A stretch of DNA of 61,854 nucleotides from Myxococcota bacterium. Lineage in GTDB: Bacteria > Myxococcota_A > Polyangia > HGW-17. Location of the stretch: assembly GCA_036802685.1 (NCBI GenBank), contig DAIRVS010000005.1, positions 10,027 through 71,880 of the forward strand, read 5' to 3'. The notes below the pieces were generated by a model. The model had not been told where the DNA came from. It made no database searches and saw nothing but the letters and a program-made list of their open reading frames with translations. Made by a program: the position numbers and the translations under genes. Of the stretch, positions 2,204-39,635 are shown in pieces (position 1 is the stretch's first letter; every line of letters begins with the position of its first letter).

Positions 2204-2232
2204 CGGTTGAGCCGCGTCAGCGGATCAACCGC
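2203..2232 (-). terminator. Stem-loop overlapping the gltG stop codon
   Basis: GCGGTTGAGCCGC (2203-2215) / GCGGATCAACCGC (2220-2232), 12 of 13 paired. Homologous to the 80..108 hairpin. Confidence 0.45.
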
Positions 2233-4345: not shown

Positions 4346-4420
4346 GGGTACAACCCTCCAATTCGCAGGCCCTGCACCTGCGAGGAAAAGGTGAAATTAC
4401 CTCAAGTTTTCAAACACGCT

Positions 4421-4669
4421 TTACAGGTCTTCCGCGGACATGATCATCTCGTTGATGAAGTTGTCGCGGAACTGGATCAGCGAGTTCAGAATGGAGATCT
4501 TGCGGCCGGACATGAAGTCCCCGTCCGGTCCCATGAGCTCACCGTCCAGGCTCTCGCTACCGAGGTCGTACGACTCGGTGATCTTCTCCTTGGCCTGGCC
4601 GAAGGCGACGGTCGGGCCGGCGAACGCGAACGCCAGAAAAACCGAGAAAAACAGAGCTTTGATCTTCAT
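4421..4669 (-). CDS. gltF: Small secreted gliding-complex protein, CglF/GltF family
   Basis: 82 aa with signal peptide. The mature part SYDLGSESLDGELMGPDGDFMSGRKISILNSLIQFRDNFINEMIMSAEDL matches the recalled CglF pattern (acidic-I/L-x-G-x-L-x-x-P-D-G...S-L-I-x-x-R-x-x-F). Confidence 0.7.
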   Translation of the reverse strand: MKIKALFFSVFLAFAFAGPTVAFGQAKEKITESYDLGSESLDGELMGPDGDFMSGRKISILNSLIQFRDNFINEMIMSAEDL

Positions 4670-4839
4670 GGCTGCTACTCCTTCGTGAGCGTGAACCGCG
4701 CCATGCTACGCTTTTACCCTCGAAATCTTTCCAATACAATAAAAATTTTCTTGGAAAATGAGGGGGAAAAAGATCGATAACAGGTGCATTGTATTTCCAA
4801 AAAAAGGACCGCGCCGAACGGGGATCGCACGCGACGGGA

Positions 4840-7443
<2,604 letters not shown>

Positions 7444-7522: not shown

Positions 7523-8737
7523 TCATATTTTACCGGCTCCGGACGGGTGCGTCGTCCCCGGATCCCCGGAGCAGGGGTAAATATTTTTATCAAGCCAATC
7601 CAACCCCTCTTCGAGGTTCTCCTCGGTGAAGAGGCGGATCCCGGAGTCGCCCAGGCGCTGGGCCAGGGGGCCGGGTCCCGGCACACGGGCGCCGCGGCAG
7701 GGGACCCGGAGGGTGCCGCAGGAGGGGCTGTTTTCCTTGAGGAAGGCGGCGAGGACGCCGGCCTCCCGGCACCAGGCGGCGACCCGTTCCACCGCGTCCA
7801 CCAGCGCGTCGGTGACGTCGGTGCCGTGCTCGTCGCGGATCAGCGGTGACCGGGCGCACGCGGGTCCGGGCTCGTTCTCGAGCTGGATCCGGGGGCGCGG
7901 GACGCCGAGCCCGGCGAGGACCTCGGGGCACACGGGGAGCACGTCCAGGCGCCCCAGGGCGCCGATCAACCCGGGGGCGGCGCGGCTCTGCCCGTCGTAG
8001 CGGCAGGGGAAGCCGAGCAGGCAGGCGGACACGGCCACGGCGGGGCGGCCGGGTGCGGCGGGAGAGGGCGGCGCGGTCCCTGCGTGATGGGCGGTGCAGA
8101 AGGCCTCCCAGAGGGGGCGCAGGGGCGCCGGCGGAGAGAAGGTGCGCGCACGGCCGTCCACGATCAGGAGCTCATGACGGCAGAACCGTGCGAGGGTCTC
8201 CGGGTACAGGCGGTGCTCATGCTCCAGGATGCGGGCTAAGAGGGAACCGACGTCCAGATCGGGGGGGACACGGAAGCAGGCCTGATCGAGGATTGGCCCC
8301 GTGTCCATGCCGGCGTCGACCAGATGGACGGTGCAGCCCGCGTACCTCACGCCGGCGGCGTGGGCCTGCTCCTGGGCGTGCAGGCCGGGGAAGGCGGGCA
8401 GCAGGCTCGGGTGGATGTTCAGCACGCGGCCGGGGAAGGCCGAGAGCAGGGTCGGGCCCAGGATGCGCATGTAGCCGGCGAGGGCCACCACGCGGACCCC
8501 GTGGGCGCGCAGGAGGTCCACGAGGCCCTCCTCGAACCGATGTTTCTTCACACCGGGGAGTTTCTCATGGGTGAACGCGGGGATCCCGGCTTCCCGGGCG
8601 AGCTCCAGGGCGGGGGCGCCGGGCTGGTCGGAGACGACGCAGGCGATGCGAAAGGGACAACCGGGACGGCGGGCCCGTGCGATCAGGGCGGCGAGGTTGG
8701 AGCCCCGGCCCGAGACGAGCACGCCGATGGGGGTCAT
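7523..8737 (-). CDS. purN: Phosphoribosylglycinamide formyltransferase fused to a C-terminal DUF523 (TudS thiouracil desulfidase-like) domain
   Basis: ATG at 8737 overlaps the purM stop (ATGA); 404 aa. PurN motifs GVLVSGRGSNL, LAGYMRILG, NIHPSLLPAFPG, VDAGMDTGPI. DUF523 motifs VSACLLGFPCRYDG, CPEVLAGLGVPR, LKENSPSCG. Confidence 0.88.
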   Translation of the reverse strand: MTPIGVLVSGRGSNLAALIARARRPGCPFRIACVVSDQPGAPALELAREAGIPAFTHEKLPGVKKHRFEEGLVDLLRAHGVRVVALAGYMRILGPTLLSAFPGRVLNIHPSLLPAFPGLHAQEQAHAAGVRYAGCTVHLVDAGMDTGPILDQACFRVPPDLDVGSLLARILEHEHRLYPETLARFCRHELLIVDGRARTFSPPAPLRPLWEAFCTAHHAGTAPPSPAAPGRPAVAVSACLLGFPCRYDGQSRAAPGLIGALGRLDVLPVCPEVLAGLGVPRPRIQLENEPGPACARSPLIRDEHGTDVTDALVDAVERVAAWCREAGVLAAFLKENSPSCGTLRVPCRGARVPGPGPLAQRLGDSGIRLFTEENLEEGLDWLDKNIYPCSGDPGTTHPSGAGKI

Positions 8738-9780
8738 GTCCAACCCAGACGGGTGGAGCGGTCTTCCCCCGGCCGCGGCGAGATGGCGCCCACGCGATGG
8801 AAGTTCTCCCCCATTTCCGTGAGTCGGGCGCCCACGGCGCCCTCGTCCTCGGGGTGGACGACCATCAGGAAGCCCAATCCGCAGTTGAACGTGCGGGCCA
8901 GCTCCTGGGGTGCGACTCCGGCGTCCCGGATGCGGGCGAAGACCTCGGGCAGCGGCCACGACGAGGGCTCCAGATCCATGCCCAGGCCGGGCGGCACCGA
9001 GCGCGGCGGGTTTTCAATCAGGCCGCCCCCGGTGACGTGCACCATGCTCTGAACGAGCCCGGCTTCGATGAGGGGTAGGACTTGGTTTACATAAATACGG
9101 GTGGGGGTCAGCAGCTCCTGGCCGACGGTGCGGCCGGTGTCGTCCCAGGGGGCGTCCACGGGGAGTCCGAGCACCTCGAGGAGCATCTTGCGCGCCAGGC
9201 TGTAGCCGTTGGAGTGCAGGCCCGAGGAGGGTAGGGCGATCACCACGTCTCCGGCCCGCACGCGCCCGGCGTCCGGGAGGTTGGCGCGATCCACGACGCC
9301 GACGGCGAAGCCCGCCAGGTCGTACTCCCCGGCCTGGTAAAAACCCGGGAGCTCGGCGGTCTCGCCGCCCAGCAGCACGACTCCGCAGGACGCGCACGCA
9401 TCGTAGATCCCCTGCACGACCTTGGCCGCGACGGGGACCTCCAGTTTTCCGGTGGCGAAATAATCGAGGAAAAACAACGGCTTGGCCCCGCAGACGAGGA
9501 TGTCGTTCACGCTCATGGCGACGAGATCCCAGCCGATGGTGTCGTGGACCCCGGTGGCGAAGGCGAGCTTGAGCTTGGTGCCGACGCCGTCGGTGGAGGC
9601 CACCAGGATCGGCTCCCGGTAACCGGGGGGCAGGGCGAACAGCCCGCCGAAGCCGCCGATGCCGCCGAGCAGGAAGGGACTCTTCTGCGGGCGGGTGATG
9701 CGCTTGATTTCCTGAACCAGAGCGTCGCCCGCGTCGATGCTGACGCCGGCGCTGGCATAATCATGGGTGTTCGTCGTCAT
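8734..9780 (-). CDS. purM: Phosphoribosylformylglycinamidine cyclo-ligase (AIR synthetase)
   Basis: 348 aa. YASAGVSIDAG, GGFGGLF, STDGVGTKL, DYFATGKL, GGETAELPG, SGLHSNGYSL, HVTGGG, RTFNCGLG. Confidence 0.97.
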   Translation of the reverse strand: MTTNTHDYASAGVSIDAGDALVQEIKRITRPQKSPFLLGGIGGFGGLFALPPGYREPILVASTDGVGTKLKLAFATGVHDTIGWDLVAMSVNDILVCGAKPLFFLDYFATGKLEVPVAAKVVQGIYDACASCGVVLLGGETAELPGFYQAGEYDLAGFAVGVVDRANLPDAGRVRAGDVVIALPSSGLHSNGYSLARKMLLEVLGLPVDAPWDDTGRTVGQELLTPTRIYVNQVLPLIEAGLVQSMVHVTGGGLIENPPRSVPPGLGMDLEPSSWPLPEVFARIRDAGVAPQELARTFNCGLGFLMVVHPEDEGAVGARLTEMGENFHRVGAISPRPGEDRSTRLGWT

Positions 9781-9806: not shown

Positions 9807-10535
9807 TTAATTCAATCCTTCTTCAGTCGTGGTGGACTGCACCGCGGGGCAGCGGTAGGCCTCTCCGCCGCCTGCATTCGTATCCAGGCAACAGTGGATC
9901 GGGGCGTCCTGGCTCTTGTTGCAGGTGTGGCCCAGATATACCGTGTCCGGGAACGTGGCCGTGGCGCAGGAGCCGATGTTGATGGCCAGGCAACCGTTGC
10001 AGATGGTGATCGGCAGATTGATGCTGTTGGTCTCGATGTCGGACCCGCCGCGCTCGCCCACCAGTTGGATCTTGGCCACGGCCTCGACGAACTGCCCGGC
10101 GCCCACGCTCAGGCGGCCGGCCAGGTTCGGGGGGATCACGTTGACCTGCAGCGAGCGGGTCTCCCCAGGGCTGATCGTCACGAAGGTGTAGTCGGCGAAG
10201 CTGGTGAAGTCAGAGAGTCCGGCGCCGGCTGCGCCCAGGCTCACGTCAATCTGGGCCGACTTCATCTCCACCGCGTTGAGTTCGATACCGTGGCTGTCGA
10301 CGGTGGACTTGAGGTTGTTGGACACCACCAGCCACGCGTAGTACTGCGGTGTGATGCCGTAGGCGGCGGCGCCGATGTCGAGGACACCGTGGCTGACGAA
10401 GTTGTCCGAGATGGTGTTCGACGCCGAGCAGCCCTCCTCGGGGGCCTGGTTCTGCAGGATGACCAGCGAGGAGCTGTTCTCCGCGCAGGCGGTCAGCGCG
10501 ACGACGAGCAGGATGATGAGCGATGCGTGTTTCAT
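9807..10535 (-). CDS. Hypothetical Cys-containing lipoprotein at the end of the pil operon
   Basis: 242 aa, lipobox LTAC, beta-rich core, C-terminal Cys cluster (CNGCL, CATA, HTCN, HCCL, YRCP). Starts 27 nt after the pilQ stop. Confidence 0.8.
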   Translation of the reverse strand: MKHASLIILLVVALTACAENSSSLVILQNQAPEEGCSASNTISDNFVSHGVLDIGAAAYGITPQYYAWLVVSNNLKSTVDSHGIELNAVEMKSAQIDVSLGAAGAGLSDFTSFADYTFVTISPGETRSLQVNVIPPNLAGRLSVGAGQFVEAVAKIQLVGERGGSDIETNSINLPITICNGCLAINIGSCATATFPDTVYLGHTCNKSQDAPIHCCLDTNAGGGEAYRCPAVQSTTTEEGLN

Positions 10536-10562: not shown

Positions 10563-13500
10563 TTAGTCCTTCGTTATTATACCCGACCGGTTCAAAACGC
10601 GAGGGGTGATGAAGATTAAAAGTTCGCTGCGTGTGTCCTTCTTGTATTGGTTTTTGAACAGCCATCCCACGATGGGGATGTCGGCGAACCAGGGGACCTT
10701 GCGATAGATCAGGCTGCTCTGGCGCTTGTAGATACCGCCGATGACAGCGGTGTCTCCGCTCTTCACCAGCAGCTCGGTCTTCGCGCTCTTCTTGGAAATG
10801 CCCAGCGAGCCGTCTGCGCCGCGGTTGGTCAGGTCGGGCTCGTCCTTGGTGACCTCGATCTTCATCTGCACCATGTTGTCGTTGGTGACGTGCGGGGTCA
10901 CGGACAGGCTCAGCACCGCCTGCTTCATGATGACGGTGTTGCCCTGGGCCGAGCTCTGGGGATACGGGATCTCCACGCCCTGGCTGATCTTCGCCTCGAC
11001 GTTGTCCAGGGTGGTGATCTTGGGCGCCGCGATGGAGCGGACGTGGCCGATCTCCTCCATGGCCGAGATGCGCAGGTTGATGTTGACCGCGCCAGACAGG
11101 CTGCCCAGGGTCATGCCCAGGGCGCCGCCGGCGCCGCTGCCCGTGTTGGCGGGCAAGTTCACGGCGAAGTCGGGGTTGGCCGCGCCTGCCGAGGAGATGC
11201 CGCCGGTCTTGGTGAGCGTGTCCATGTTGCCGCCGGCCAAGCCGATGTTGGATGGGAAGATCAGGCCGGTGGGGTTTCCCGAGGCCGAGTTGGCCAGAAG
11301 CGAGCCACCCCACTGGACGCCGATTTCGCGCAGGAAGGTGGTCTCGGCCTCGACGATGCGGGCCTCGATCTGCACCTGCGGGGTGGGCAGGTCCAGGGAG
11401 CGGACCAGCTCCTGGGCCACCTTGAGCTTGGAGGGGACGTCCACGTAAATGATGACGTTGGTGCGCTTGTCGAAGGACACCTTGCCCCGGGAGCTCATCA
11501 CGTTGGCCTCGATGGTCTTGGCGATGTCCTCGACGTTGGAGTAATTGATGGGGATCAGGCGCGTCTCCGTCGGGATCATCTTCACCTCGGTCTTGGTGCG
11601 CGCCAGTTGGTCCTCCCGCTCCTTGTTCAACTGCTCCAGGGTGGCGATGCGGATGATGTTGCCGCCCTCGTTCACCCAGTCCAGGCTCTTGGACTTGAGG
11701 ATGACGTCGAAGGCACGATCCACGCGGACGTTGGTGAGCTTGATGGAGATGGTCCCCTTCACGTCGTCCGGGATGACCACGTTCTTGCCCCACACCTCGG
11801 CCACCAGGCGGATGACGTTGTGTAGATCGGCGTCCTTGAAGTCCAGGTCGACGAACCGGCCGCTGTAACCGCCGCCGCCGGTGCCGGTGCGACCGGCTGG
11901 TTTGATACCCTTGCGGGCCGACGAGGGGGCGGTGGGCAGGTTGTTCTTGACCGCCGTCTGGGTGTCGACGTAGCCGCCGACCTCGGAGGGAGGCACGGAG
12001 GACTTCTGGAACCGGCGGACCTCGGCGACGGTCTTGGGCACCAGGATGAGGATCTGGTGGCCGTTGCGGCGCACCTGAAGGCTGCGGGTGCCGGCGGTGT
12101 GGAGCTCGACGACCGCTGTCGGCGTCTTGCCGGTGGTGCGGTTGAAGGTCAGCACGCGGGAGACAGGCCCCTGGTAGGAGGCCGTGTCCATGTTGCGGCG
12201 CAGATCCTGTCGGAACTGGCCTTGCGGGAAGGTGATCGTCCACAGATCACCCTTCTGGGCGAGGGTCTCGGGACCGGGCGCCGCGGTGAATCGCAGCACG
12301 AGGTGGTGGGACCATGGAGAGTCCACGAATTCCACGTGCTCGACCTGGGCGGTGCCGGTCGGGGTCGGTGCCGGTGCCGGGGTCGGGGTGGGGGCCGGAA
12401 CGGGAGTCGGAACGTCCTTCTCCACTGTGGCGACCTTGCGCTCGGCGAGGACTGCGAGCTCGCGCTGGAGCTGGACCTTGCGGGTCTCCAGTTCGCGGAT
12501 CTCGGCTTCCCGCGCCTTCTTTTCCTGGTCATCGCGGGTGGTCTTGCGCCGGTTCATCTCGTCGAGCTGGCGGCCCAACTCCACCCGCTTGCGCTCGAGG
12601 TCGGTCAATTCGGTCTGCGCCTTGAGCTTGTCCATCTCCAGGCGGCGCAGGCTCTCCCGCGTGGCTTCGAGGGCGGCCAGGTCCCGCTCGAGCTTGCCTT
12701 TTCGGGTCTCGAGCTCGGCGATCTGCGCGGTCCGTCGCTTCACCTCCTCGGGATCGACGCGTCCGGCCTTCGGGTCGGTTCGGACCGCGGTCTCGAGCTG
12801 GGTCTTTCTGGCCTTGAGGGTCTCCAGTTCGGCCTGGATCTGGGTCTTGCGGGCATCGAGCTGGCGGAGGTTCTCCTGATCCTGCTTCACGCGCTCGGCG
12901 AGGGCCTTCGCCGAGAGGGTCAGTTCCCGGTATTCCTTCTCCTTGATCGCCTGTTTGCGCTCCAGGGCCTCGAGGGCGGCCCGGTTCGCCTCCAGTTTTG
13001 TCTCCGTGCGCTTCAACTGACCTTCGCGCTCTGCGAGCTGCCGGATGAGCTCGGCCAGGCGGCGCTTCTCGGCGGCGGTCTGCCGGGAGATGCCCTCCAG
13101 CCGGGCGTTGAGCTCCCGCAGTTGGCCACGGGCCTCGTCGCGAGACTGGGAGATCATGATCAGATCCTGGGAGGCGGCTTCGTAGCGGGTCCGGGCCTCC
13201 TCGAGCTCTGTCCGGGCCTTGGCCAGGCGGCCACCCAGCGTCTTGACCTCGGCCTCACCCTCGCGGGCGGCCTTCTCCCACCGGGAGGCCTGCTTCTCCA
13301 GCCGGGCGATCTCGGTCTCCCGCTGCTGCTGGCGCTCCTTCAGGCGGACCAGCTCGCGGCGCTGTCCTTCGCGCTCCAGTTTCTCCTTCTGGGTCTCCTC
13401 CTGAGCGAGCAGCTTCTGGTGCTCGGTCCGGGCCGCCTTCAACTGCTTCAGGCTCTCCTGTTCCCGGCCCTTGTGGACCTGGATCATGGCCAGTTCGTCC

Positions 13501-14906
13501 TTCTCGCGGGCCAGCAGCGTCTCGATGCCACGGCGGCGCTTCTCGAGGACGGTCGCGCGCTCCTGCTCCTCGGCGGCGAGCCGGGCGGCCTGCTTCTGGA
13601 GCTCTTCGGACTTCTTGCGGGCCGCCTCCAGGGAGGCCTGGAGCTGGCGCTCCTTCTCGACGGCCTGGTGGAGGCTGTCACGCCGGGCGGCCAGTTCGTC
13701 GGTCTCCTTGCGAAGTTGGACCTTCTGGGACTGCAGTTCGCCGGTCTGGCGGCGCAGCTCGGCGATCTCGGCGGTGAGCTTGCGATTCTCGAGCTCGGCG
13801 TTGGTGCGGAGGGTGGAGAGTTTCTGCTCCTCCTCGGTCAACTGGCGCTGGAGCTCGGCCCGCCGGGCCTCTACCGCCTTCACCTGTGCCTGCGCCGTCT
13901 GCAGCCTGCGCTCGGATTCGCCGACGCCCTTCTCCAGGGTGGCGAGCCGGTCAGCCGCCTCCCGGGTCAGTTTCTGTCCGTTCTGCTCCTGGGTCCGCGC
14001 CTGCTTGCGGAGGGTCTCGATCTCGGCCCGGGCGGTCTGGATCTCCCGCTCGATCTGCCGGCGACGGTCGAGCCCCTCGTTGAGCTCCCGGGTGGCCTTC
14101 TCCAACTCGGCTCGGCTCTTCTCCCGCTGGACCTCCATGGTCCGGGTCACGGTCTGGAGCTCGGTGAGGCGGGCGCGGGCCTTCTCCTCGCTCTCCCTGG
14201 CCTGGGCGAGCTGGGCCTGCAGGGTCTTCATCTCCGCAGCGATCTTGTCGCGGGACTCGGACAGGGCCTTCACCTGGCGGCGGGCCTCCTCCTGCTCCCG
14301 GGCGAGCTGGTCGCCGGTCTTGCGCGAGTCCGTCAGGTCGGTCTTGCGTCGGGCGCTCTCGTTCTCGAGACGCGCGCGCTCGACGCGGAGCTTCTCGGCT
14401 GCGGCCTGGGCCTCGCGGAGCCGATTCTCCATCTCGGTGGCCTGCTTCTGCAGGCGGGCGAGGCGCGCGGTGGCCTCCTCGGTGGAGGGCGGCGGCGCCT
14501 GTTCAGGCGTGAGCACCAACTGGACCGTCTGATCCTTCGTCAGGACCTGGTAGCCGGCCTTGCGCGCCAGAAAGACGGTGACCCGGCCCTTGGTCTGCCC
14601 CGTCTTTCCGTGGTTGGACAGGGACACCGAGGAGACCGTCCAGTCGTCCACATCCAGGGGGGTCGCGGTGTCCTCGAACCAGGTCGAGGCCAGCTCGAGG
14701 ACGATCCGGGGCGGTGAGTCCGCCGCGAAGGCGGTGAAGTTCACGCCGCGGGTGCCCGGGACGTGGACGACCGTCTTGCCGTCCGCGCGCTCGAACCGGA
14801 TCTGCCGGACCCTGTTGATGTCCTGCCCCCAGGACGCTCCCGGGACGAGGCAGGCGCCCAGAAGGGCGACGAAGAGGATTCTATGGATGGGGTGGCGGCT
14901 GTTCAT
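10563..14906 (-). CDS. pilQ: Type IV pilus secretin PilQ with a very long coiled-coil insertion
   Basis: 1447 aa. Signal peptide, AMIN-like domain, about 680 aa of E/K/R/Q/L-rich coiled coil, PT linker, second AMIN-like domain, N0 (YSGRFVDLDFKDADLHNVIRL), secretin domain (PQVQIEARIVEA, APKITTLDN, VPWFADIPIVGWLFK, ELLIFITPRV). Follows pilMNOP. Confidence 0.93.
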   Translation of the reverse strand: MNSRHPIHRILFVALLGACLVPGASWGQDINRVRQIRFERADGKTVVHVPGTRGVNFTAFAADSPPRIVLELASTWFEDTATPLDVDDWTVSSVSLSNHGKTGQTKGRVTVFLARKAGYQVLTKDQTVQLVLTPEQAPPPSTEEATARLARLQKQATEMENRLREAQAAAEKLRVERARLENESARRKTDLTDSRKTGDQLAREQEEARRQVKALSESRDKIAAEMKTLQAQLAQARESEEKARARLTELQTVTRTMEVQREKSRAELEKATRELNEGLDRRRQIEREIQTARAEIETLRKQARTQEQNGQKLTREAADRLATLEKGVGESERRLQTAQAQVKAVEARRAELQRQLTEEEQKLSTLRTNAELENRKLTAEIAELRRQTGELQSQKVQLRKETDELAARRDSLHQAVEKERQLQASLEAARKKSEELQKQAARLAAEEQERATVLEKRRRGIETLLAREKDELAMIQVHKGREQESLKQLKAARTEHQKLLAQEETQKEKLEREGQRRELVRLKERQQQRETEIARLEKQASRWEKAAREGEAEVKTLGGRLAKARTELEEARTRYEAASQDLIMISQSRDEARGQLRELNARLEGISRQTAAEKRRLAELIRQLAEREGQLKRTETKLEANRAALEALERKQAIKEKEYRELTLSAKALAERVKQDQENLRQLDARKTQIQAELETLKARKTQLETAVRTDPKAGRVDPEEVKRRTAQIAELETRKGKLERDLAALEATRESLRRLEMDKLKAQTELTDLERKRVELGRQLDEMNRRKTTRDDQEKKAREAEIRELETRKVQLQRELAVLAERKVATVEKDVPTPVPAPTPTPAPAPTPTGTAQVEHVEFVDSPWSHHLVLRFTAAPGPETLAQKGDLWTITFPQGQFRQDLRRNMDTASYQGPVSRVLTFNRTTGKTPTAVVELHTAGTRSLQVRRNGHQILILVPKTVAEVRRFQKSSVPPSEVGGYVDTQTAVKNNLPTAPSSARKGIKPAGRTGTGGGGYSGRFVDLDFKDADLHNVIRLVAEVWGKNVVIPDDVKGTISIKLTNVRVDRAFDVILKSKSLDWVNEGGNIIRIATLEQLNKEREDQLARTKTEVKMIPTETRLIPINYSNVEDIAKTIEANVMSSRGKVSFDKRTNVIIYVDVPSKLKVAQELVRSLDLPTPQVQIEARIVEAETTFLREIGVQWGGSLLANSASGNPTGLIFPSNIGLAGGNMDTLTKTGGISSAGAANPDFAVNLPANTGSGAGGALGMTLGSLSGAVNINLRISAMEEIGHVRSIAAPKITTLDNVEAKISQGVEIPYPQSSAQGNTVIMKQAVLSLSVTPHVTNDNMVQMKIEVTKDEPDLTNRGADGSLGISKKSAKTELLVKSGDTAVIGGIYKRQSSLIYRKVPWFADIPIVGWLFKNQYKKDTRSELLIFITPRVLNRSGIITKD

Positions 14907-15640
14907 GGTCCGACCTCCTTGGGCTTGTTCTTACCGTACATGCGAACTCGGATCCCGCGCTGGTCGGCGCGGAGCTTGTCGTACTGGACCTGGTAGGGCC
15001 CCGACGTCCGGGCCAGGGAATACTCCATCACCTTGGGTTCCTCCCCCTGCACGGAGCCGGGGACCTCCACGAGCACCTTGTCATGGGTGATCTCCCGGAT
15101 CAGGGCACGGGACCTGCTGATCCGGTCGTCCTTCATCACGGTTGTGGGCTGCCCCGAGGGATCCGTGAACAGGGCTTTCTCCCGGCCGGCAGACCACACG
15201 ATCCCGGACAGGGTCAATTGGTTCAACTGGAAGTTCTCGAGGAGGATCACAACTGTGCTCTCAGTGACGCCGGGCTCGGTGGTGGGGGCCTCGACCTCCT
15301 TGGCCACGAGGAGCCCGTACAGGTCGACGAAGGGGTCGCGCTGCTCCTTACCGTGCTCGACGAAGACCTCGGGCGGCAGGGTCCGGGCGTTCTCGTTGAA
15401 CGGCGGGATCGCCAGGTTTTCGTCGGCGAAGTTGTGCAGGGGCACGGCGTTCTTGGCCTTTCCGCCGGGCGCGCGAGGCCCCTGGGGGGGCGGGGGCGGG
15501 GTGGCGGCGCCGGGGGTGCCGGCCGCCGGAGGCGGGGGCTGTCCGCCGGAGGATCCCTTGTCGTCGCCGCCGCAGCCGGGGGCCGCCAGCAGCCATGCAA
15601 CAGAGCAAAGAAGGAGCGTCCTCATGGCTATCCCTTTCAT
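14903..15640 (-). CDS. pilP: Type IV pilus assembly lipoprotein PilP
   Basis: Lipobox AAPGC, Pro-rich linker, RDPF motif, LENFQLNQLTLSGIVW...KALFTDPSG. Start either at 15640 (overlaps the pilO stop) or at 15625. Confidence 0.85.
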   Translation of the reverse strand: MKGIAMRTLLLCSVAWLLAAPGCGGDDKGSSGGQPPPPAAGTPGAATPPPPPQGPRAPGGKAKNAVPLHNFADENLAIPPFNENARTLPPEVFVEHGKEQRDPFVDLYGLLVAKEVEAPTTEPGVTESTVVILLENFQLNQLTLSGIVWSAGREKALFTDPSGQPTTVMKDDRISRSRALIREITHDKVLVEVPGSVQGEEPKVMEYSLARTSGPYQVQYDKLRADQRGIRVRMYGKNKPKEVGP

Positions 15641-16314
15641 GGACCGACCGGCGCGTCGGGTCCCATGGTCATGCGGTTGGCGCCCTCCCGGAGCAGGTCG
15701 GGCTTCTTCTTGTCCACCGCCGGTTTTGCCGGGATGAACGACGGCGAATAATAGATCCGGGCCGTGAACTCGGCCTCGAGTAGGTTGCGGTCGGCGGTGT
15801 TCCCCTGCGTGGTGGCGCGCATGCGCATCACCACGTCGCCCACGTCCATCAGCCGGTTCATCTGAAACATCTTGTAGAGGAAGCGACAAATGGAATGGAA
15901 GCGGCCCTGCACGATGAGCTTGATGGGCCGGACCACCACGGCGTCGAAGGAGTCGGTGTCGTCCTCCTGCGGGATGATCGAAGAGATGCGGATGTCGTCG
16001 GCCATCTGGTCGAGCTCGCCGACGAGCTCCGAGAGATCCACCGAGACGGGGATACGCTTGGTCAACTCTTCGCTCTTCAGTTCCATTTCGTCAAGCTCGG
16101 CTTTGGCCTTCTTGGCGTTCTCCAGGTTTCTCTGGGCTTCCGCGATGGCGTATTCTCCATACTCCGCCTGCTTCCTGGACTTCTCGATGTCGTCCTTGGC
16201 GACGGTGTACGGGTTCAGGAAATAGTAGGCGACCATGGCCCCGGACACGAAGACGGTCAGGAGGAACTTGTGCGTGAACGGTGCCTTGGCCAGCCAGTGG
16301 TAGATGCGTTCCAT
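15637..16314 (-). CDS. pilO: Type IV pilus assembly protein PilO
   Basis: 225 aa. N-terminal TM, coiled coil, then RPIKLIVQGRFHSICRFLYKMFQMNRLMDV. Lies between pilN and pilP. Confidence 0.88.
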   Translation of the reverse strand: MERIYHWLAKAPFTHKFLLTVFVSGAMVAYYFLNPYTVAKDDIEKSRKQAEYGEYAIAEAQRNLENAKKAKAELDEMELKSEELTKRIPVSVDLSELVGELDQMADDIRISSIIPQEDDTDSFDAVVVRPIKLIVQGRFHSICRFLYKMFQMNRLMDVGDVVMRMRATTQGNTADRNLLEAEFTARIYYSPSFIPAKPAVDKKKPDLLREGANRMTMGPDAPVGP

Positions 16315-16339
16315 GAGATCACCTGCGTCGTTTCATGTC

Positions 16340-16993
16340 CTAGTACACCATCACGGCCTTGATCTTGAACGTGACCATGGTCGTCTCGGGTGTGTCCTTC
16401 TTCTGTTGACCGGAGTTCACGGTCTGGACCTTCGCCTCCAGGATCTCCGGGTTCCGGAAATAGGCCGACACCCGCATACGCCGCGCGAGCTCGGACACGT
16501 CGTAGTGGCTGCGGGCCACGCCCTCGAGGGCGAGGAAACGATCCTTGTCCTCGATCTTGGTGAAGAACATCGGGGAGGGGTCCCAGTTCGTGTCCAGATC
16601 GGTGCGCGCCTCGGGGCCGGTCACCGTGGGCAGCTGGCCCACGCTGACGATGCGGGCCAGCTCCAGCAGGACGAACACCGGGTTCGAGCGGACCTTCTCG
16701 ATTCGCCCCACCGTGTCCACGCGTTTCTGGTACTCGGCCTTCATCTTCTGTTTTTCGGCTTCGGGCAGCACCTTGAACTGGGACAGTTGGGCCTGCAGCG
16801 CGTTGATCTTGCGGTTGTTTTCCTCGATGATGCCGCGGTTCTTCTCGATACTGGAGGTGTCCAGCACGAACTTGTAATGATAGAAGAGGCCGCCGCCGGT
16901 CAACAGCCAGGTCGCCAGGATCAGGAGCAGCACCTGCTGTCCCCGGGCTTCCTTCGGGGAGACCTTCTGTGGAATCAGGTTGATGCGCAACAT
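16340..16993 (-). CDS. pilN: Type IV pilus assembly protein PilN
   Basis: N-terminal MLRINLIP motif, TM, coiled coil, LEGVARSHYDVSELARRMRVSAYFRN. SD AAGGAG is best spaced to the ATG at 16993. Confidence 0.9.
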   Translation of the reverse strand: MLRINLIPQKVSPKEARGQQVLLLILATWLLTGGGLFYHYKFVLDTSSIEKNRGIIEENNRKINALQAQLSQFKVLPEAEKQKMKAEYQKRVDTVGRIEKVRSNPVFVLLELARIVSVGQLPTVTGPEARTDLDTNWDPSPMFFTKIEDKDRFLALEGVARSHYDVSELARRMRVSAYFRNPEILEAKVQTVNSGQQKKDTPETTMVTFKIKAVMVY

Positions 16994-17018
16994 CGGCATA
17001 CTCCTTCGGGAAGATCCC

Positions 17019-18071
17019 CTAGATCTTCTTGTCGCCCGGTCGGCGCAGGGCCAGGCCCAGGGCGACCGAGGCGGTGGCGGCCTGGGACTGCAAGAGCGGC
17101 ATGTCGAACATGCCCGGGTCGACGATGACGCCGCGGGTGAAGCCGTCGAAGACGGTCACCGAGTTCTTGGACCGTCGCTCGATGGCCTGGACCAGCGGCC
17201 TCATGATGGAACCGCCGCCGGTGGCGACCAGCCGGGTGGCGTTCGTCGCCGGCGCCGAGCTCAGGAAGAAGTCGATGGAGCGCTGCAGCTCGCCCGCCAT
17301 CACGTCGCACACGCGGTTGACGATGCCCAGGATGTTCGGATCCGGGGTGGCGCTCATGGCGAGCTCGCGCTTGCGGTTCTCTGCCTCGTCCGCGGCGATC
17401 TGCAGGGTGCGCTGGATCTCGCCGGTGATGGTCTGCCCGCCGATGCCGATGCCGCGGGCGAAGGTCGTCACGCCGCCGATGACGACGTTGAGTGACGTGG
17501 AGACGGCCCCGATGTTGAGCATCACCACGGTCTCCGTCGGGGAGAAGCCGACGAGCCGCTCGTACAGGTTCTGCACGGCGAAGGCCGCGACGTCGATGAT
17601 CACGGGGTTCAGGCGGGCCTCCTTCACGATGTCGAGGAAGTCCTGCACGGTCTCCTTCTTGGCGGCCACGAGGAGGATCTCCATCTGCCCCTCGGTGTTC
17701 TTCGGCACCACGATGTCGTAATCCACCTCGACCTCGTCGCGGGCGAACGGGATGTGGTGGGACATCTCCAGGTTCAGTTCCTCGGCCAGCTCCGCCCTCG
17801 ACATCACGGGCATGGCGATCTTCTTCACGATCACTGAGCGGCCGGAGATCGCGATCGCGACCTCCTTGCGCTTGATCCCCAGGCGCGAGAACAGGGCTTC
17901 GATCGAGTCGAGGACCGCCGCCTGGTTCATGATCGCGCCGTCGACGATCGTCTCCGGGGGCAGGGGATTGATGCCGAAGTTCGCCAGCACGAGGCCCTTG
18001 CGGGTCTCCTCCAGTTGCACCACCTTGACCGATGAGGAACCGATGTCGAGGCCAATACAGTTTTTCGCCAT
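17019..18071 (-). CDS. pilM: Type IV pilus assembly actin-like protein PilM
   Basis: IGLDIGSSSVKVV, IPFARDEVEVDY, IDVAAFAVQN, LNIGA, ATGGGS, ASVALGLALR. SD AAGGA upstream of the ATG at 18071. Confidence 0.95.
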   Translation of the reverse strand: MAKNCIGLDIGSSSVKVVQLEETRKGLVLANFGINPLPPETIVDGAIMNQAAVLDSIEALFSRLGIKRKEVAIAISGRSVIVKKIAMPVMSRAELAEELNLEMSHHIPFARDEVEVDYDIVVPKNTEGQMEILLVAAKKETVQDFLDIVKEARLNPVIIDVAAFAVQNLYERLVGFSPTETVVMLNIGAVSTSLNVVIGGVTTFARGIGIGGQTITGEIQRTLQIAADEAENRKRELAMSATPDPNILGIVNRVCDVMAGELQRSIDFFLSSAPATNATRLVATGGGSIMRPLVQAIERRSKNSVTVFDGFTRGVIVDPGMFDMPLLQSQAATASVALGLALRRPGDKKI

Positions 18072-18120
18072 GATATTGTCATCCTTCGGTCCATGTGACA
18101 AATGGACCTACTCTGGAACC

Positions 18121-19736: not shown

Positions 19737-21470
19737 TCAGCCGCCGACGAACGGATACTGGAAGGACTTGGTCGAGGGCTTCTTGAACTTCGGGAACTTG
19801 GCGCCCCTCACGGCCTTCTCGATGCAGCCGCCCAGCGGGGAGGAGGCGTGTTCGCCGGAGGCCGAGGCGCTCTGGACGTTACCATTGCAGCCCACGGACA
19901 CGCGGACGGTGACCTTGCCGGAGATGCCGAACTTGGAGAAGCAGGCGTTGACCGCCGTGCGGACGTTGGACATGCCGTCCTTGACGTCGGCGGGGGTGAG
20001 GGTCTCGTTGGGGTTGCCGGCACAGGCGTCGTCGCCGCCGGAGTTCATGGGGCCGTCGCCGCCACGGAACGGGGCGCAACAGTCGGGGGCGTTGTTCTTC
20101 AGCATGCACCACACCTTGGTGCAGCCGCCGTCGGCGGGCATGTCGTCGTTCATGGGCGGCATGTCGACGGGCATGTCCGGGGTCATGACGGGGTCCATGG
20201 AGCCGCCCATGACCACCACGGGGTCCATGGAGCCGCCCATCTCGACCGGGCGGTCGCCGCCCATCTCGGCAGGCATGTCGGGAGGCATGTCGCCGTCGGC
20301 AGGCATGTCGGGGGGCATGTCGCCGTCGGCGGGCATGTCGGGGGGCATGTCGCCGTCGGCGGGCATGTCGGGGGGCATGTCGGGAGGCATGTCGCCGGGG
20401 CCCATGTCGTTGTTGGCCGCGGGCATGTCACCGGGTGTCTTGTTGTTGGCCGCCGCGACGTTGTTGGCAGCGGGCTTGTTGTTCTGGGCCACCGGGGTGC
20501 CGCCCTGTTCCTTCTTGCCGGAGGACATCTGCCACACCACGAACCCTCCGATGAGGACCACGGCCACGACGGCGCCGATGATGGCGGGTACGATCCATTT
20601 GGGCTTCTCGGACTCCATCTGAGTGGGGATCAGGACCGGCGCGATACTGATGGGGGTGGCGACGACGGGCGCGGCCGGCAGGTCGAAGGGGACCGCGTCC
20701 TGCTTGGCGGGTTTCCCCGTGTTCATCGACGCGGCCATCTCCTGGATGTCGACGAGCCCGGAGCCCTGGCTGGACGGATTGATGTAGCCGGGACGGGGAG
20801 CCGGCTTCTTCGCGGAGGACGCCGCCAGGTTCTGGAGGTTGTCCAGGGAGAAGAGCACGGAGTTCTCATGGCGCTGGCCCTTGAGGGCGGTAGAGGCGGA
20901 GGAATCCTCTTCTTCGGTGCCGAAGAAGCCGCCGCCGGCGGGCTTCGCCGCGGGTTCGGGGGCGGGTTCGGGGGCTGCCTGCTTGGCCGGGGCGGCCTGC
21001 CTGGCGGGCTCGGCCTTGGCCGGGGCGGGCTCGGCCTTGACCGGGGCGGGCTCGGCCTTGGCCGGAGCGGGCTCGGCCTCGGCTTCGGGGAAGTGGGCGG
21101 AGAACTCGCCCAACGTGCTGATCTTCTTCCAGTCGGGGAGGCCTTCGTTCCAGGCGAGCGCGTCGGGCGGGATGGCGCCGGCGGCGATCTGATCCACCAC
21201 CTCGGAAACAGTCATCGGACCATCGGTCTTGTCGCCGACGGCCACGTGCCAAATCTTGGCGTCCGCTTCACTAGCTGCGGCCTGGCCGCCGGACATGGCG
21301 CTGTAGTCCACCACGCGCGTGGACTCGTCTTCGCCGCCGCCCTCGTCGGCGGGCTTCACCATGATGACGTGACCGCACTTTTTACACTTGATCTTGAAGG
21401 TCTTTCCCTTGGTCAGTTTGTCATCCGAGAGCGAATACTTGGCATGGCAACTATCGCAGATCACTTTCAT
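19737..21470 (-). CDS. gltJ: GltJ/AgmX-like protein: zinc ribbon - GYF_2 - TM - Pro/Asp/Met linker - TonB-like C-terminal domain
   Basis: 577 aa. CDSCHAKY...IKCKKCGH zinc ribbon; WHVAVGDKTDGPMT...LAWNEGLPDW GYF_2 domain; TM WIVPAIIGAVVAVVLIGGFVVW; C-terminal VNACF...VTVRVSV...LGGCIEKAVRGAKFPKF. Confidence 0.8.
   Translation of the reverse strand: MKVICDSCHAKYSLSDDKLTKGKTFKIKCKKCGHVIMVKPADEGGGEDESTRVVDYSAMSGGQAAASEADAKIWHVAVGDKTDGPMTVSEVVDQIAAGAIPPDALAWNEGLPDWKKISTLGEFSAHFPEAEAEPAPAKAEPAPVKAEPAPAKAEPARQAAPAKQAAPEPAPEPAAKPAGGGFFGTEEEDSSASTALKGQRHENSVLFSLDNLQNLAASSAKKPAPRPGYINPSSQGSGLVDIQEMAASMNTGKPAKQDAVPFDLPAAPVVATPISIAPVLIPTQMESEKPKWIVPAIIGAVVAVVLIGGFVVWQMSSGKKEQGGTPVAQNNKPAANNVAAANNKTPGDMPAANNDMGPGDMPPDMPPDMPADGDMPPDMPADGDMPPDMPADGDMPPDMPAEMGGDRPVEMGGSMDPVVVMGGSMDPVMTPDMPVDMPPMNDDMPADGGCTKVWCMLKNNAPDCCAPFRGGDGPMNSGGDDACAGNPNETLTPADVKDGMSNVRTAVNACFSKFGISGKVTVRVSVGCNGNVQSASASGEHASSPLGGCIEKAVRGAKFPKFKKPSTKSFQYPFVGG
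20260..20410 (-). repeat. Coding tandem repeat (PPDMPADGDM-like, 30 bp) in the GltJ periplasmic linker
   Basis: Repeated GGCATGTCG units on the + strand; translation PPDMPPDMPADGDMPPDMPADGDMPPDMPADGDMPPDMPAEM. Boundaries approximate. Confidence 0.85.
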
Positions 21471-33746: not shown

Positions 33747-35000
33747 TTACGAACTGGGAGGCATGGGGGGCAGGGCCTGGGCCATCTCGAGTTTTTTCAG
33801 GTAGTCCGGCTTGGAGTAGGGAACCTGGGCGTGCCGCGCGTGATCCTGGTGGGGGAGCTCCTGGGAGGGGGAGACGCGGGGCAGCTCGGAGGTGGAGTAG
33901 GCGTTGCGCGGGCCGGAGTCGGCCTCCCGCTGCCCGTAGGGGGCGGTGGCGGTGTACGGCAGGCTCATCTGGGTCTGCTGCTGCCGGATCGAGGAGCCGT
34001 TGTTGACGAGCTCGTGCTTGGGCGTGGTCTTGGCCGGGGCGACGTTCTGGTCGAAGCCGGTGGCGATGATGGTCACGCGCACCTCGTTCTGGAGGTTGGG
34101 ATCGACGACCGAGCCCCAGATGACGTTGGCGTCCTCGTTGGCCACGTCCTCGATGAGCATGGCGGCCTCGGAGATCTCCTGCAGGGAGAGGTTCGGCGAG
34201 CAGGTGATGTTGACGAGCACCCCGGTGGCGCCGTCGATGGACACGTCCTCGAGCAGCGGGGAGGAGATGGCGTTGCGGACGGCCTCGACGGCGGCGTGGT
34301 CGCCCTTGCTGACGCCGATGCCCATCAGGGCGCGGCCCTTGTTGGCCATGACCGAGCGGACGTCCATGAAGTCGACGTTGATGTAGCCGCTCTCCAGGAT
34401 GAGGTCGGTGATGCCGCGGGCGGCGTTGAGCAGGACCTCGTCGGCCCGGGAGAAGGCGTCCATCATGCTGATGTTCGCGGACAGCGACAGCAGCTTGTCG
34501 TTGGGGATGACGATCAGGGCGTCGACCTCGTCCTGCAGGGCGGCGATGCCCTCCTCGGCCTGGCGCATGCGGCGCTTGCCCTCGAACCGGAACGGTTTGG
34601 TGACCACGCCGACGGTCAGCGCGCCGGTCTCCTTGGCGATGCGGGCGATCACGGGGGCCGCGCCCGTGCCGGTGCCGCCGCCCATGCCGGCGGCGATGAA
34701 GATCATGTCGGCGCCGGACACCGAGCCGCGGATGAGCTCGGCGCTCTCCTCGGCGGCCTTGCGGCCGACCTCGGGGTTGGCGCCGGCCCCGAGACCGGAG
34801 GTGATCTTGTCGCCGAGCTGGATCTTGGTGCCGGCGAGGCTCTTCTCGAGCGCCTGGCGGTCCGTGTTGGCGGCATAGAACTGCACGCTGTCGAGGTGGT
34901 TCGAGAGCATGTTGTTCACGGCGTTGCCGCCGGCTCCGCCGACGCCGATGATCTTGATGCGGGCTTCTCCGGTCACGTTGTCATCCAGGGTGTAAGGCAT
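33747..35000 (-). CDS. ftsZ: Cell division GTPase FtsZ
   Basis: IKIIGVGGAGGNAVNNM, GLGAGANPEVGRKAAEE, tubulin signature GGGTGTG, INVDFMDV. SD GGAGG upstream of the ATG at 35000. Confidence 0.98.
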   Translation of the reverse strand: MPYTLDDNVTGEARIKIIGVGGAGGNAVNNMLSNHLDSVQFYAANTDRQALEKSLAGTKIQLGDKITSGLGAGANPEVGRKAAEESAELIRGSVSGADMIFIAAGMGGGTGTGAAPVIARIAKETGALTVGVVTKPFRFEGKRRMRQAEEGIAALQDEVDALIVIPNDKLLSLSANISMMDAFSRADEVLLNAARGITDLILESGYINVDFMDVRSVMANKGRALMGIGVSKGDHAAVEAVRNAISSPLLEDVSIDGATGVLVNITCSPNLSLQEISEAAMLIEDVANEDANVIWGSVVDPNLQNEVRVTIIATGFDQNVAPAKTTPKHELVNNGSSIRQQQTQMSLPYTATAPYGQREADSGPRNAYSTSELPRVSPSQELPHQDHARHAQVPYSKPDYLKKLEMAQALPPMPPSS

Positions 35001-35109
35001 CGAAATTCCTCCGTATTTATGGGACAGATCCACTCGAGGTGGTCCAGTTCATCAGTCTTCGCACGACAGCTCGACGGACTTCTCAGGCATCGTAAGAGCT
35101 GTGCGCGAC

Positions 35110-36387: not shown

Positions 36388-36487
36388 AGGCAAAGCTCCT
36401 TTTTGCGTGTTTCAACGCAAGAAAGGTTTACATGAACCCGGATATGGTTGCGAATTTTACCCCAGTAGGTGTTTTAACGCATTGTTA

Positions 36488-39591: not shown

Positions 39592-39635
39592 CGACCCCGA
39601 CGGGCGCGCGCGCCCCGAGGCGAAGGATTCCGACC

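Follow-up and report, generated by a model that had tools for sequence, protein, structure and literature searches.

The type IVa pilus secretin PilQ encoded in this stretch of DNA (the window, 61,854 nucleotides) carries a canonical, non-repetitive heptad coiled coil between its two AMIN domains. This rod of 683 residues (143-825; 12432..14480) consists of five long helices linked by three short joints across which the heptad phase is preserved, and corresponds to the 12430-14480 of the original prediction; it and all other features given here lie on the minus strand (-). The gene (pilQ, 10563..14906) is a complete, uninterrupted ORF whose 1447-aa product, an outer-membrane secretin, matches the PilQ model TIGR02515 over residues 1018-1439 with 410 bits (cutoff 284). 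Both core elements of the original prediction, a giant PilQ and a coiled coil of about 680 residues between its AMIN domains, hold. We think the chances are a little better than even that the full explanation is a real rod that pairs in parallel between protomers and forms outrigger arms in the plane of the cell wall.

Pfam and TIGRFAM matches identify pilQ as the final gene of a pilMNOPQ operon. Its ATG start is preceded by AAGGAGG and shares bases with the pilP stop as ATGA. The pilP gene (14903..15640; Pfam PilP) encodes a lipoprotein (MKGIAMRTLLLCSVAWLLAAPGC) of about 245 aa if M84 of the listed ORF is taken as its start, and is preceded by the block 15637..18101, which holds pilO (15637-16314), pilN (16340-16999) and pilM (17019-18101), each with Pfam and TIGRFAM matches. 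The sizes of these three genes are normal relative to Myxococcus (locus L025), with PilN and PilO at 219 and 225 aa here and 225 and 208 aa there. A gene for a conserved Cys-rich lipoprotein of 242 aa (9807..10535; lipobox LTAC) begins 28 nt downstream of pilQ in conserved synteny; Pfam and NCBIfam scans of this protein returned no match.

PilQ is ordered as signal peptide, AMIN1, the helical insert, a Pro/Thr linker, AMIN2, N0, N3 and secretin. The signal peptide, read from the sequence, comprises residues 1-28 (14823..14906), with a probable SPase I cut site after residue 28, ahead of a conserved G-Q; Cys19 resembles a lipobox cysteine, and since it is not conserved in homologues PilQ is probably not a lipoprotein. 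AMIN1 (residues 29-134; 14505..14822; Pfam AMIN 4.8e-11, spanning 35-122) and AMIN2 (852-960; 12027..12353) match each other in reciprocal jackhmmer searches and are all-beta in the AlphaFold2 (AF2) model; AMIN2 scanned alone scores 20.5 bits against Pfam AMIN, which equals the cutoff, and Foldseek matches it to PilQ and AmiC AMIN structures (3jc8_Qa, 4bin, 4aqz). The flexible Pro/Thr/Ala-rich (PT) linker between rod and AMIN2, assigned by composition (826-851; 12354..12431), contains the sole DNA tandem repeat (12350-12410) and differs in length among homologues. After a Gly/Pro-rich disordered linker (961-1017; 11856..12026; pLDDT ~30 and composition) come the Pfam-defined N0 (1021-1087), N3/Secretin_N (1115-1177) and secretin (1282-1438) domains (10593..11846), a core with 93-97% identity within the close clade.

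The closest solved relative is Myxococcus xanthus PilQ (3jc8, E 6e-126), which aligns over residues 1012-1443 only, and none of the matched solved PilQs (571-901 aa chains) aligns to the rod. The M. xanthus protein (901 aa, three AMIN domains; PDB 3jc8/3jc9) has the same place in the operon and a matching N0-N3-secretin core, and its first and last AMIN domains are orthologous to AMIN1 and AMIN2 here; where it has a middle AMIN, the present protein has the coiled coil. In both proteins, binding of septal/polar peptidoglycan is expected of the AMIN domains (PMC10653833); AMIN domains are described as binding such peptidoglycan and as recruiting PilQ (PMC10653833, PMC5285504).

The evidence for the rod comes from composition, heptad order, conservation and structure prediction. 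The segment is rich in E, R, A, L, Q and K (17, 15, 13, 12, 9 and 8.5%, respectively) and has two prolines (712 and 719), where the flanking domains contain 7% Pro. Its best-register a/d score is 7.93 versus 5.12 +/- 0.22 for composition-matched shuffles (12.8 SD above), its period-3.5 power for LIVMFYW exceeds that of 500/500 shuffles, and the register breaks only five times (320, 465, 517, 750, 793), leaving runs as long as 233 residues. Invariant residues make up 52-58% of the core a/d positions compared with 11-17% of b/c/f, and conservation across nine homologues is 0.85 at a, 0.87 at d, 0.79 at e and 0.77 at g, as against 0.63-0.64 at b/c/f. AF2 places long helices at 142-190, 194-308, 315-499, 519-709 and 719-829. 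Coiled-coil prediction and AlphaFold, both proposed as checks with the original prediction, bear out the coiled coil. NCBIfam SMC matches fall far under cutoff (54.6 bits vs 567), and we read them as reflecting coiled-coil composition, not homology.

Misassembly, raised beforehand as something that could undo the finding, is excluded: PilQ showed no internal protein repeats, the one tandem repeat in the DNA is the PT linker, and eight independently assembled homologues have lengths of 1439-1455 aa and align almost without gaps, with rod indels only at the helix joints (145, 185-191, 303, 313, 711 and 790). Joint 1 (residues 186-199, the TDLTDSRKTGD region; 14310..14351), an AF2 helix break, carries in three homologues a deletion of exactly 7 residues that preserves the heptad phase. 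Joint 2 (309-314, NGQ; 13965..13982), also an AF2 break, has one-residue indels at 303 and 313 and a register shift at 320, and joint 3 (709-720, RTDPKAGRVDPE; 12747..12782), recognized from AF2 and indels, contains both rod prolines; the register of 517-749 passes through it uninterrupted. Midway lies a weak-heptad stretch (495-519; 13350..13424; pLDDT <50), the AF2 fold-back point, within a region (467-522) whose heptad score is low; the well conserved K490-A-A-R-T-E-H-Q-K-L-L-x-Q-E-E504 and G514 flank it.

The original prediction took such inserts to be rare and named their being common in PilQ as something that would undo it; at the sequence level they are indeed common: a coiled coil of at least 100 aa is present in 104 of the 150 closest secretin-core cluster representatives, the AMIN-coiled coil-AMIN layout in 130 of 267 PilQs, and, followed by the secretin, this is the commonest layout among the nearest relatives. 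In relatives the AMIN domains lie 94 to 1718 aa apart, the rods of the wider family run from about 100 to about 1650 residues, and many close relatives have no rod at all. In this family the two AMIN domains correspond to the first and third, AMIN1 and AMIN3, of three-AMIN PilQs. Judged from these sequences, PilQ of the AMIN-rod-AMIN type has a wide distribution among uncultured Myxococcota and also in Bradymonadales, where it occurs throughout, including in the cultured Lujinxingia vulgaris TMQ2. Our literature search found no paper describing a PilQ with a coiled coil between AMIN domains. A delta-proteobacterial AMIN fused to a TolA-like charged helical region was listed as architecture viii, separately from the PilQ architecture (iv) and with no link to a secretin (de Souza et al. 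2008, PMC2572700); sharing an N-terminal AMIN, a long charged helix and the broad taxonomic group with this PilQ, it may be an early-genome glimpse of what we describe here. In the PilQ described here, Pfam gave no match to TolA domain III or to a TM anchor.

The charges of the rod favor parallel pairing. Across the rods of 117 family members, attraction outweighs repulsion at g(i)-e(i+5) by 2056 pairs to 1111, an excess of 937, and at every other i+5 position pair it is either not in excess or in deficit. Each of nine clade members has a ratio of about 2:1; taken by itself, this protein gives a weak signal (17 vs 8, z 1.7). Such complementarity is expected of parallel, not antiparallel, pairing, and it is fairly well supported that the rod would pair parallel and in register with those of neighboring PilQ protomers over ~100 nm. 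Because K/R are frequent at a positions, the bundle is probably two-stranded. The reach of about 100 nm proposed originally stands if the bundle is parallel, and drops to ~50 nm in the AF2 hairpin.

That hairpin is the alternative we take most seriously, although we regard it as unlikely: the rod of each protomer would turn back at ~500-518 into an intramolecular antiparallel two-helix arm of ~45-50 nm, folded as in SMC, Rad50 or EnvC arms, with motif 490-504 and G514 as its conserved tip. AMIN1 would then be returned beside AMIN2, leaving the tip instead of AMIN1 as the distal functional end, which might, for instance, contact a neighboring machine or some other protein of the periplasm. The AF2 monomer has a low-confidence turn at 499-519 with matching helix lengths on either side (185 vs 191 and 115 vs 111), and by our reading the midpoint of this turn and those of the joint pairs (192, 829) and (311, 714) lie within ~4 residues of one another; the center has the weakest heptad score yet holds invariant residues. 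Pairing i with 1025-i lets ~70% of core positions coincide, but such coincidence recurs at every seventh offset and discriminates little. For single-chain input, AF2 often returns a folded-back model of a coiled coil that is truly a parallel homo-oligomer, which we count against the hairpin. Further, the five register discontinuities are not mirrored about the center, the supposed tip has neither indels nor a Pro/Gly-rich loop, the closest outgroup (P0038) lacks ~94 residues that all lie past 705 with no matching loss from the N-terminal arm, and proline is entirely missing from 80% of the rods in the family, which reach 1648 aa. The antiparallel arms of SMC, Rad50 and MukB resemble the rod in having long helices with discontinuities, and Foldseek matches the AF2 monomer to SMC and Rad50 arms over 200-500 aligned columns; however, those proteins have ATPase heads and a hinge domain, both absent from this periplasmic protein, and the g-e' charges point to parallel pairing.

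A passive spacer, that is, an expandable helical linker in place of the middle AMIN with no specific mechanical or positioning role, drifting in length and tolerated because one AMIN suffices for PilQ function, is improbable. It would suit the rod-free relatives, the large spread of lengths in the family and the fast evolution of the rod (26% identity against 84% in the secretin core); such divergence suits a spacer no less than a load-bearing strut and to that extent counts against the outrigger reading. Within the clade, rod length is held within 9 residues at only ~50% sequence identity, and ~400 consecutive residues (314 to 710) are free of indels; together with the phase-preserving 7-residue indel, the selective conservation at a/d/e/g, the exclusion of proline over hundreds to >1600 residues and the persistence of the layout in two deep lineages (a Haliangiales-like group and Bradymonadales), this argues for purifying selection on rod structure and length.

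We give very little credence to a periplasm-spanning ruler, with the rod perpendicular to the membranes and reflecting or setting a wide periplasm or OM-PG distance like Lpp or SlpA, since a length of 101 nm (50 nm for the hairpin) is far beyond any reported diderm periplasm, PilN, PilO and PilP bridge the same gap at ordinary length, rod length varies ~18-fold among relatives with 45-60% identical secretin cores, and AMIN2, directly before N0, already puts the secretin at the wall; the unusually wide periplasm once suggested is likewise not supported. SlpA (Deinococcus) and OmpM (Negativicutes) do offer an analogy, with a PG-binding domain, a parallel coiled-coil stalk and an OM beta structure in the same N-to-C order (PMC9388160). 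They have no sequence relationship to this PilQ, bind the wall by SLH rather than AMIN, and end in a trimeric porin-like barrel rather than a secretin multimer. Their stalks, several-fold shorter, differ from a ~100 nm rod, which cannot be perpendicular to the membranes. Thermus thermophilus PilQ is another T4P secretin elongated on the periplasmic side, but through globular ring domains piled up along the axis of the pilus so as to span a wide periplasm, whereas the addition here is a fibrous rod N-terminal to the last AMIN.

With parallel pairing, a 12- to 15-subunit ring would bear several jointed ~100 nm arms, each tipped with an AMIN1 cluster and beginning, via the flexible PT linker, at peptidoglycan-bound AMIN2. 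Since such arms would be at least three times as long as the periplasm is wide and start at AMIN2, they would have to lie in the plane of the sacculus; the lateral orientation proposed originally is therefore a sensible inference for a rod that cannot stand across the periplasm, and the normal length of PilN and PilO counts in its favor. Other than the established affinity of AMIN domains for septal/polar peptidoglycan (PMC10653833), we found no evidence for the suggested link to the Glt machinery or the division site. An in-plane arm carrying a second peptidoglycan anchor far from the pore is weakly supported, from geometry, and would give the machine a second set of attachments tens of nanometers away. 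If true, such an outrigger or guy-wire could widen the capture radius for septal/polar peptidoglycan, spread the load of pilus retraction over the wall, and fix a minimum spacing between machines.

The pilQ gene (10563-14906, reverse strand) is an uninterrupted open reading frame of 1447 codons and the last gene of a pilMNOPQ operon; its start codon, an ATG with AAGGAGG ahead of it, shares the sequence ATGA with the stop codon of the gene before it, and upstream of pilQ on the same strand lie pilP (encoding a lipoprotein of about 245 aa counted from an internal Met), pilO, pilN and pilM, and then a sigma-54 response regulator. The C-terminal part of the product scores 410.6 bits against TIGR02515 (PilQ; cutoff 284) over residues 1018-1439 and matches the Pfam domains Secretin (7e-46), Secretin_N (1.4e-9) and N0 (4.6e-9), and a first AMIN domain (AMIN1) is matched at residues 35-122 (4.8e-11). 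A hydrophobic N-terminus, a cleavable signal peptide, is kept among PilQ homologues; the LLGAC stretch within it resembles a lipobox, yet Cys19 varies among homologues, and we rejected a lipoprotein PilQ. The secretin core, the pilMNOP neighbourhood, an AMIN domain and a signal peptide identify the protein by sequence as a type IVa pilus secretin PilQ, a class of gated pores of 12 to 15 subunits through which the pilus passes. The best solved relative is Myxococcus xanthus PilQ (3jc8), for which the alignment is confined to residues 1012-1443.

The long insert, here called the rod, occupies residues 143-825 (12430-14480, reverse strand), and none of the solved PilQ chains matched (571-901 aa) aligns to it. 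It is followed by a 26-residue Pro/Thr linker (residues 826-851), which is the sole DNA tandem repeat of pilQ found by TRF, and then by a second AMIN domain, AMIN2 (residues 852-960). The AMIN2 segment by itself scores 20.5 bits on the Pfam AMIN profile, right at the cutoff; AMIN1 and AMIN2 retrieve each other in iterated profile searches (jackhmmer), and in Foldseek searches the AlphaFold2 (AF2) beta domains match the AMINs of M. xanthus PilQ and E. coli AmiC and the B2 domain of N. meningitidis PilQ.

Several neighbouring genes deserve mention. A 242-aa predicted lipoprotein (9807-10535, reverse strand; lipobox LTAC) starts 28 nt downstream of pilQ and carries invariant cysteines, among them those of a CxxC pair and of a QD...CC motif, with no match in Pfam or NCBIfam. 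It is found at the same position with 80-90% identity in the pil loci L001-L005 and L007 from genome scans, and downstream of pilQ with 25-31% identity in L013, L021, L024, L031, L044, L058 and L059, some of which are rod-less; it is a candidate PilQ-associated or pilotin-like lipoprotein not yet described. Ahead of pilM, next to the sigma-54 response regulator, is a gene (19737-21470, reverse strand) for a 577-aa protein rich in Pro and Ala, with a zinc ribbon at its N-terminus and a GYF_2 domain; it is conserved at this position in L001, L003, L004 and L005. Beyond the operon, a single reverse-strand reading frame at 7523-8959 joins a PurN formyltransferase (residues 80-256) to a 2-thiouracil desulfurase (PF04463, residues 308-447); it looks like a fusion, and its start, which overlaps purM, is probably over-extended. 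Downstream of purMN (2225-7443, reverse strand) come genes for an FHA-domain protein of 706 aa and for an 867-aa Ser/Thr kinase that ends in PEGA domains. On the forward strand, a 970-aa protein with weak TPR matches (39402-42314) precedes a 1676-aa reading frame (42311-47341) that has a signal peptide and is rich in K, A, L and E, has no Pfam match and is not coiled-coil by our a/d scorer; its region has lower GC (0.60-0.62) and a strongly positive AT skew. The window also contains ftsZ and ftsA side by side and dnaX (clamp loader tau/gamma; 33747-36393 and 52011-53789, both reverse strand), a setting of core chromosomal genes at about 20 kb from the pil operon.

The original prediction described the insert as a coiled coil set between two AMIN domains, and heptad score, conservation pattern and AF2 helices agree in confirming this. 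The rod is rich in E, R, A, L, Q and K and has two prolines in 683 residues, versus 7% proline in the flanking domains; its period-3.5 power of large hydrophobic residues exceeds that of 500 out of 500 shuffles. Coiled coils were scored with a home-made heuristic based on a/d positions (threshold 6.0), for which the controls gave 0-4.6 in AMIN and secretin regions, 5.1 in the shuffled rod and zero rod residues in 66 of 80 PilQ loci; with it, the best-register mean is 7.93 for the rod versus 5.12 ± 0.22 for composition-matched shuffles (z about 12.8); the AMIN and secretin parts of the protein stay under 4.7. AF2, given residues 29-1017 and nine aligned sequences (mean pLDDT 68), places helices at 142-190, 194-308, 315-499, 519-709 and 719-829 between two all-beta domains.

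Conservation follows the same heptad. In an alignment of the nine-sequence clade, formed by the window protein and eight homologues of near-equal length, conservation is 0.85 at a, 0.87 at d, 0.79 at e and 0.77 at g, versus 0.63-0.64 at b, c and f, with 52, 58, 41 and 34% of positions invariant at a, d, e and g versus 11-17% at b, c and f; since both position sets are made of E, R, Q and K, the gap between e/g and b/c/f is not an effect of residue type. Assigned on the profile by a Viterbi procedure, the register breaks at only five places (320, 465, 517, 750 and 793), with unbroken runs of up to 233 residues, and it crosses the proline-bearing joint at 709-720. By its periodicity, its few helix breakers and its a,d > e,g > b,c,f ranking, the rod has the sequence signature of a canonical left-handed heptad coiled coil. 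A single alpha-helix (ER/K) domain is ruled out, as the most conserved positions, a and d, are occupied by L, I, V, M or A in about 59% and about 69% of cases, respectively; heptad order, conservation pattern and predicted helices rule out a disordered spacer.

Misassembly, a worry raised with the original prediction, and recent tandem amplification are both rejected: self-BLASTP finds no internal repeats in the protein, TRF finds none in the gene beyond the Pro/Thr linker, and the eight homologues, of 1439-1455 aa, come from independent metagenome assemblies that carry the labels Haliangium, Kofleriaceae, Myxococcota and HGW-Deltaproteobacteria-17 and -22. P0007-P0009, the three that diverge most, match the window protein at 93-94% identity over the secretin core, about 60% over the AMINs and 49-53% over the rod. 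Despite this divergence, rod indels are restricted to residues 145, 185-191, 303, 313, 711 and 790, which are the AF2 helix-break sites, and the stretch 314-710 is indel-free; in P0007-P0009 the deletion of 185-191 removes exactly one heptad (7 aa). Because indels are few and confined to joints, we conclude that the rod is jointed and that selection maintains its length and phase. Pairwise gaps between the window rod and that of the homologue P0040 include 14, 14, 28 and 14 residues, which suggests that rod length changes in phase-preserving, whole-heptad steps. Within the clade, length and heptad phase are thus kept while sequence diverges, and between clades length varies about 18-fold. After composition correction, only four HSPs indicate homology between distant family rods among about 120 proteins compared; since distant rods share almost no sequence, their evolution is not traceable by alignment.

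To see how widespread such rods are, we searched 1.84 billion cluster representatives exhaustively with the secretin core alone (residues 1018-1447). Among the best 150 matches (45-94% identical), 96 are at least 1000 aa and 32 at least 1400 aa long; at least 100 coiled-coil-like residues precede the core in 104 and at least 500 in 32, the longest content being about 1270 residues in a 2249-aa protein. The resulting figure of 69% of nearest relatives with a rod is an overestimate, as clustering at 50% identity multiplies the fast-evolving rod proteins. In a word-index search with the core, PilQs of 500-850 aa predominate; this length distribution is to be handled with care, as the search missed the giant homologues P0002-P0009 (93-97% identical) and is seemingly biased against long proteins. 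In a census of 267 PilQs, 130 have an AMIN-coiled coil-AMIN layout, 51 are AMIN-AMIN, 33 are AMIN-AMIN-AMIN (the Myxococcus type) and 22 are N-terminally truncated coiled coil-AMIN forms; in the first class the inter-AMIN spacing is 94-1718 residues (median 640). Compared with three-AMIN PilQs, AMIN1 of this class groups with AMIN1 and AMIN2 with AMIN3, and the rod therefore occupies the position of the middle AMIN.

A scan of species-representative genomes found rods in 14 of 80 loci, all 14 from metagenome-assembled genomes (MAGs), and none in the Sorangium, Myxococcus, Archangium, Vitiosangium and Geomonas isolates; these counts exclude cultured Haliangium ochraceum, which is not among the loci recovered by four genome scans. 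In a scan seeded with a Bradymonadales MAG, 15 of 17 full-length Bradymonadales loci have the AMIN-coiled coil-AMIN layout, with proline-free rods of 208-390 residues. One of the rod-bearing proteins belongs to a cultured isolate, Lujinxingia vulgaris TMQ2 (locus L118, NZ_VOSL01000055.1, 5929-9432, forward strand): it is about 1130 aa long, is encoded downstream of pilMNOP and has two AMIN stretches, N0/STN, Secretin_N and Secretin in Pfam, with a proline-free rod at residues 192-569 (378 residues). This isolate provides a practical organism in which the ideas below are testable. By sequence comparison, AMIN-coiled coil-AMIN is the commonest layout among the nearest relatives of the window PilQ and general in Bradymonadales.

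The insert had been singled out as exceptional. By sequence it is not, given how common rods are in its relatives and in Bradymonadales; in the literature searched it is undescribed, as no account of a coiled coil in a PilQ or any other secretin turned up in full-text searches. Among the architectures of the 2008 AMIN paper is AMIN fused to a charged, TolA-like helical region, in several delta-proteobacteria and as an entry distinct from PilQ (PMC2572700), and a 2023 M. xanthus study surveyed the presence of AMINs in secretins, not rods (PMC10653833). TolA itself has an N-terminal transmembrane anchor and a domain III, whereas the window PilQ has no such match in Pfam or NCBIfam and its N-terminus is a cleavable signal peptide. 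SlpA/OmpM proteins combine SLH domains with a porin-like barrel; the window PilQ lacks both and has AMIN and secretin domains instead, making the likeness an analogy only.

How the rod pairs determines its reach: at 0.148 nm per residue, 683 residues span about 101 nm, or about 50 nm if folded as a hairpin. The most discriminating test between a parallel bundle and a hairpin is charge pairing, since g-e' pairs mark parallel in-register coiled coils and g-g' and e-e' pairs antiparallel ones. Over the 117 non-redundant rods of the family, attraction outnumbers repulsion at g(i)-e(i+5), with 2056 pairs versus 1111, an excess of 937 relative to random pairing; the other six i+5 position pairs show no charge excess or a deficit, and all i+3 and i+4 pairs come out positive, as is normal for helices. 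The window protein alone gives only 17 versus 8 for g-e(+5), and all nine clade members are at about 2:1. On this evidence we moderately favour parallel pairing of the rods between PilQ protomers over a hairpin. Lysine or arginine occupies 22 of 97 a positions; frequent K/R at a points to two-stranded coiled coils, and this weakly suggests a two-stranded rod.

In the alternative arrangement, each rod would fold back on itself, antiparallel within one chain, at about residues 500-518. The AF2 single chain does turn back there, with helix lengths matching on both sides, and pairing residue i with 1025-i makes 70% of core positions coincide, although such coincidence recurs at every seventh offset. 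However, the register discontinuities are not mirrored, the putative tip is indel-free and not loop-like in composition, and in general experience single-chain AF2 commonly folds back true parallel homo-oligomeric coiled coils. The nearest outgroup, P0038, is colinear with the window protein (core 84%, rod 26% identical) and lacks about 94 residues, every one of them beyond residue 705, which also speaks against a hairpin. Foldseek matches the AF2 model to SMC and Rad50 arms, a likeness limited to the fold-back: those arms need matched discontinuities plus a head and hinge, whereas the window PilQ has no ATPase or hinge domain. Because 80% of the rods in the AMIN-coiled coil-AMIN class are proline-free, mirror symmetry of prolines is uninformative here. 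Taken with the charge pairing, this makes the hairpin the less probable arrangement.

The original prediction offered three settings for such a rod: a lateral tether of about 100 nm, an unusually wide periplasm, and a link to the Glt machinery. The last is unsupported. PilN and PilO bridge the inner membrane to the N0 domain of PilQ, and they are 219 and 225 aa here, versus 225 and 208 in Myxococcus and 222 and 192 in Lujinxingia; because these proteins span the same gap and are ordinary-sized, there is no sign of a wide periplasm, which is unlikely. The tether is plausible by rod length if pairing is parallel, its reach falling to about 50 nm if the rod is a hairpin.

With parallel pairing, the rod, which leaves AMIN2 through the flexible Pro/Thr linker, would by its geometry have to run in the plane of the sacculus, and its three joints may allow it to bend with the curved pole; AMIN1 domains would cluster at its far end. 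The simplest interpretation is an outrigger, in which extra, distant peptidoglycan attachments would enlarge the capture radius for a polar landmark, distribute the retraction load and hold machines apart. Judged from sequence, the fast drift of the rod, with its length and phase tightly kept, is more in line with a structural strut than with a specific binding surface. A bolder proposal, which we regard as improbable, is that the rods are length-calibrated in-plane struts of a polar peptidoglycan scaffold that fixes machine-to-landmark and machine-to-machine distances. If true, the scaffold would be built by parallel bundles that form within one secretin or in trans between neighbours, rod length, which spans about 15 to about 250 nm depending on lineage, would be a genetically encoded ruler of the piliation pattern, and the whole would be a periplasmic, cytoskeleton-like positioning principle unknown for any secretin.

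Type IV pilus secretins are usually viewed as compact channels whose AMINs pin them to septal or polar peptidoglycan. The proteins described here form a large PilQ subfamily, unremarked before, that carries an inter-AMIN rod of 50-250 nm in place of this compact form, and that shows an unusual pattern of evolution, with length and phase conserved within a clade while the sequence diverges. The subfamily bears on what holds pilus machines in place against retraction forces, what keeps them apart and what sets their number at a pole.
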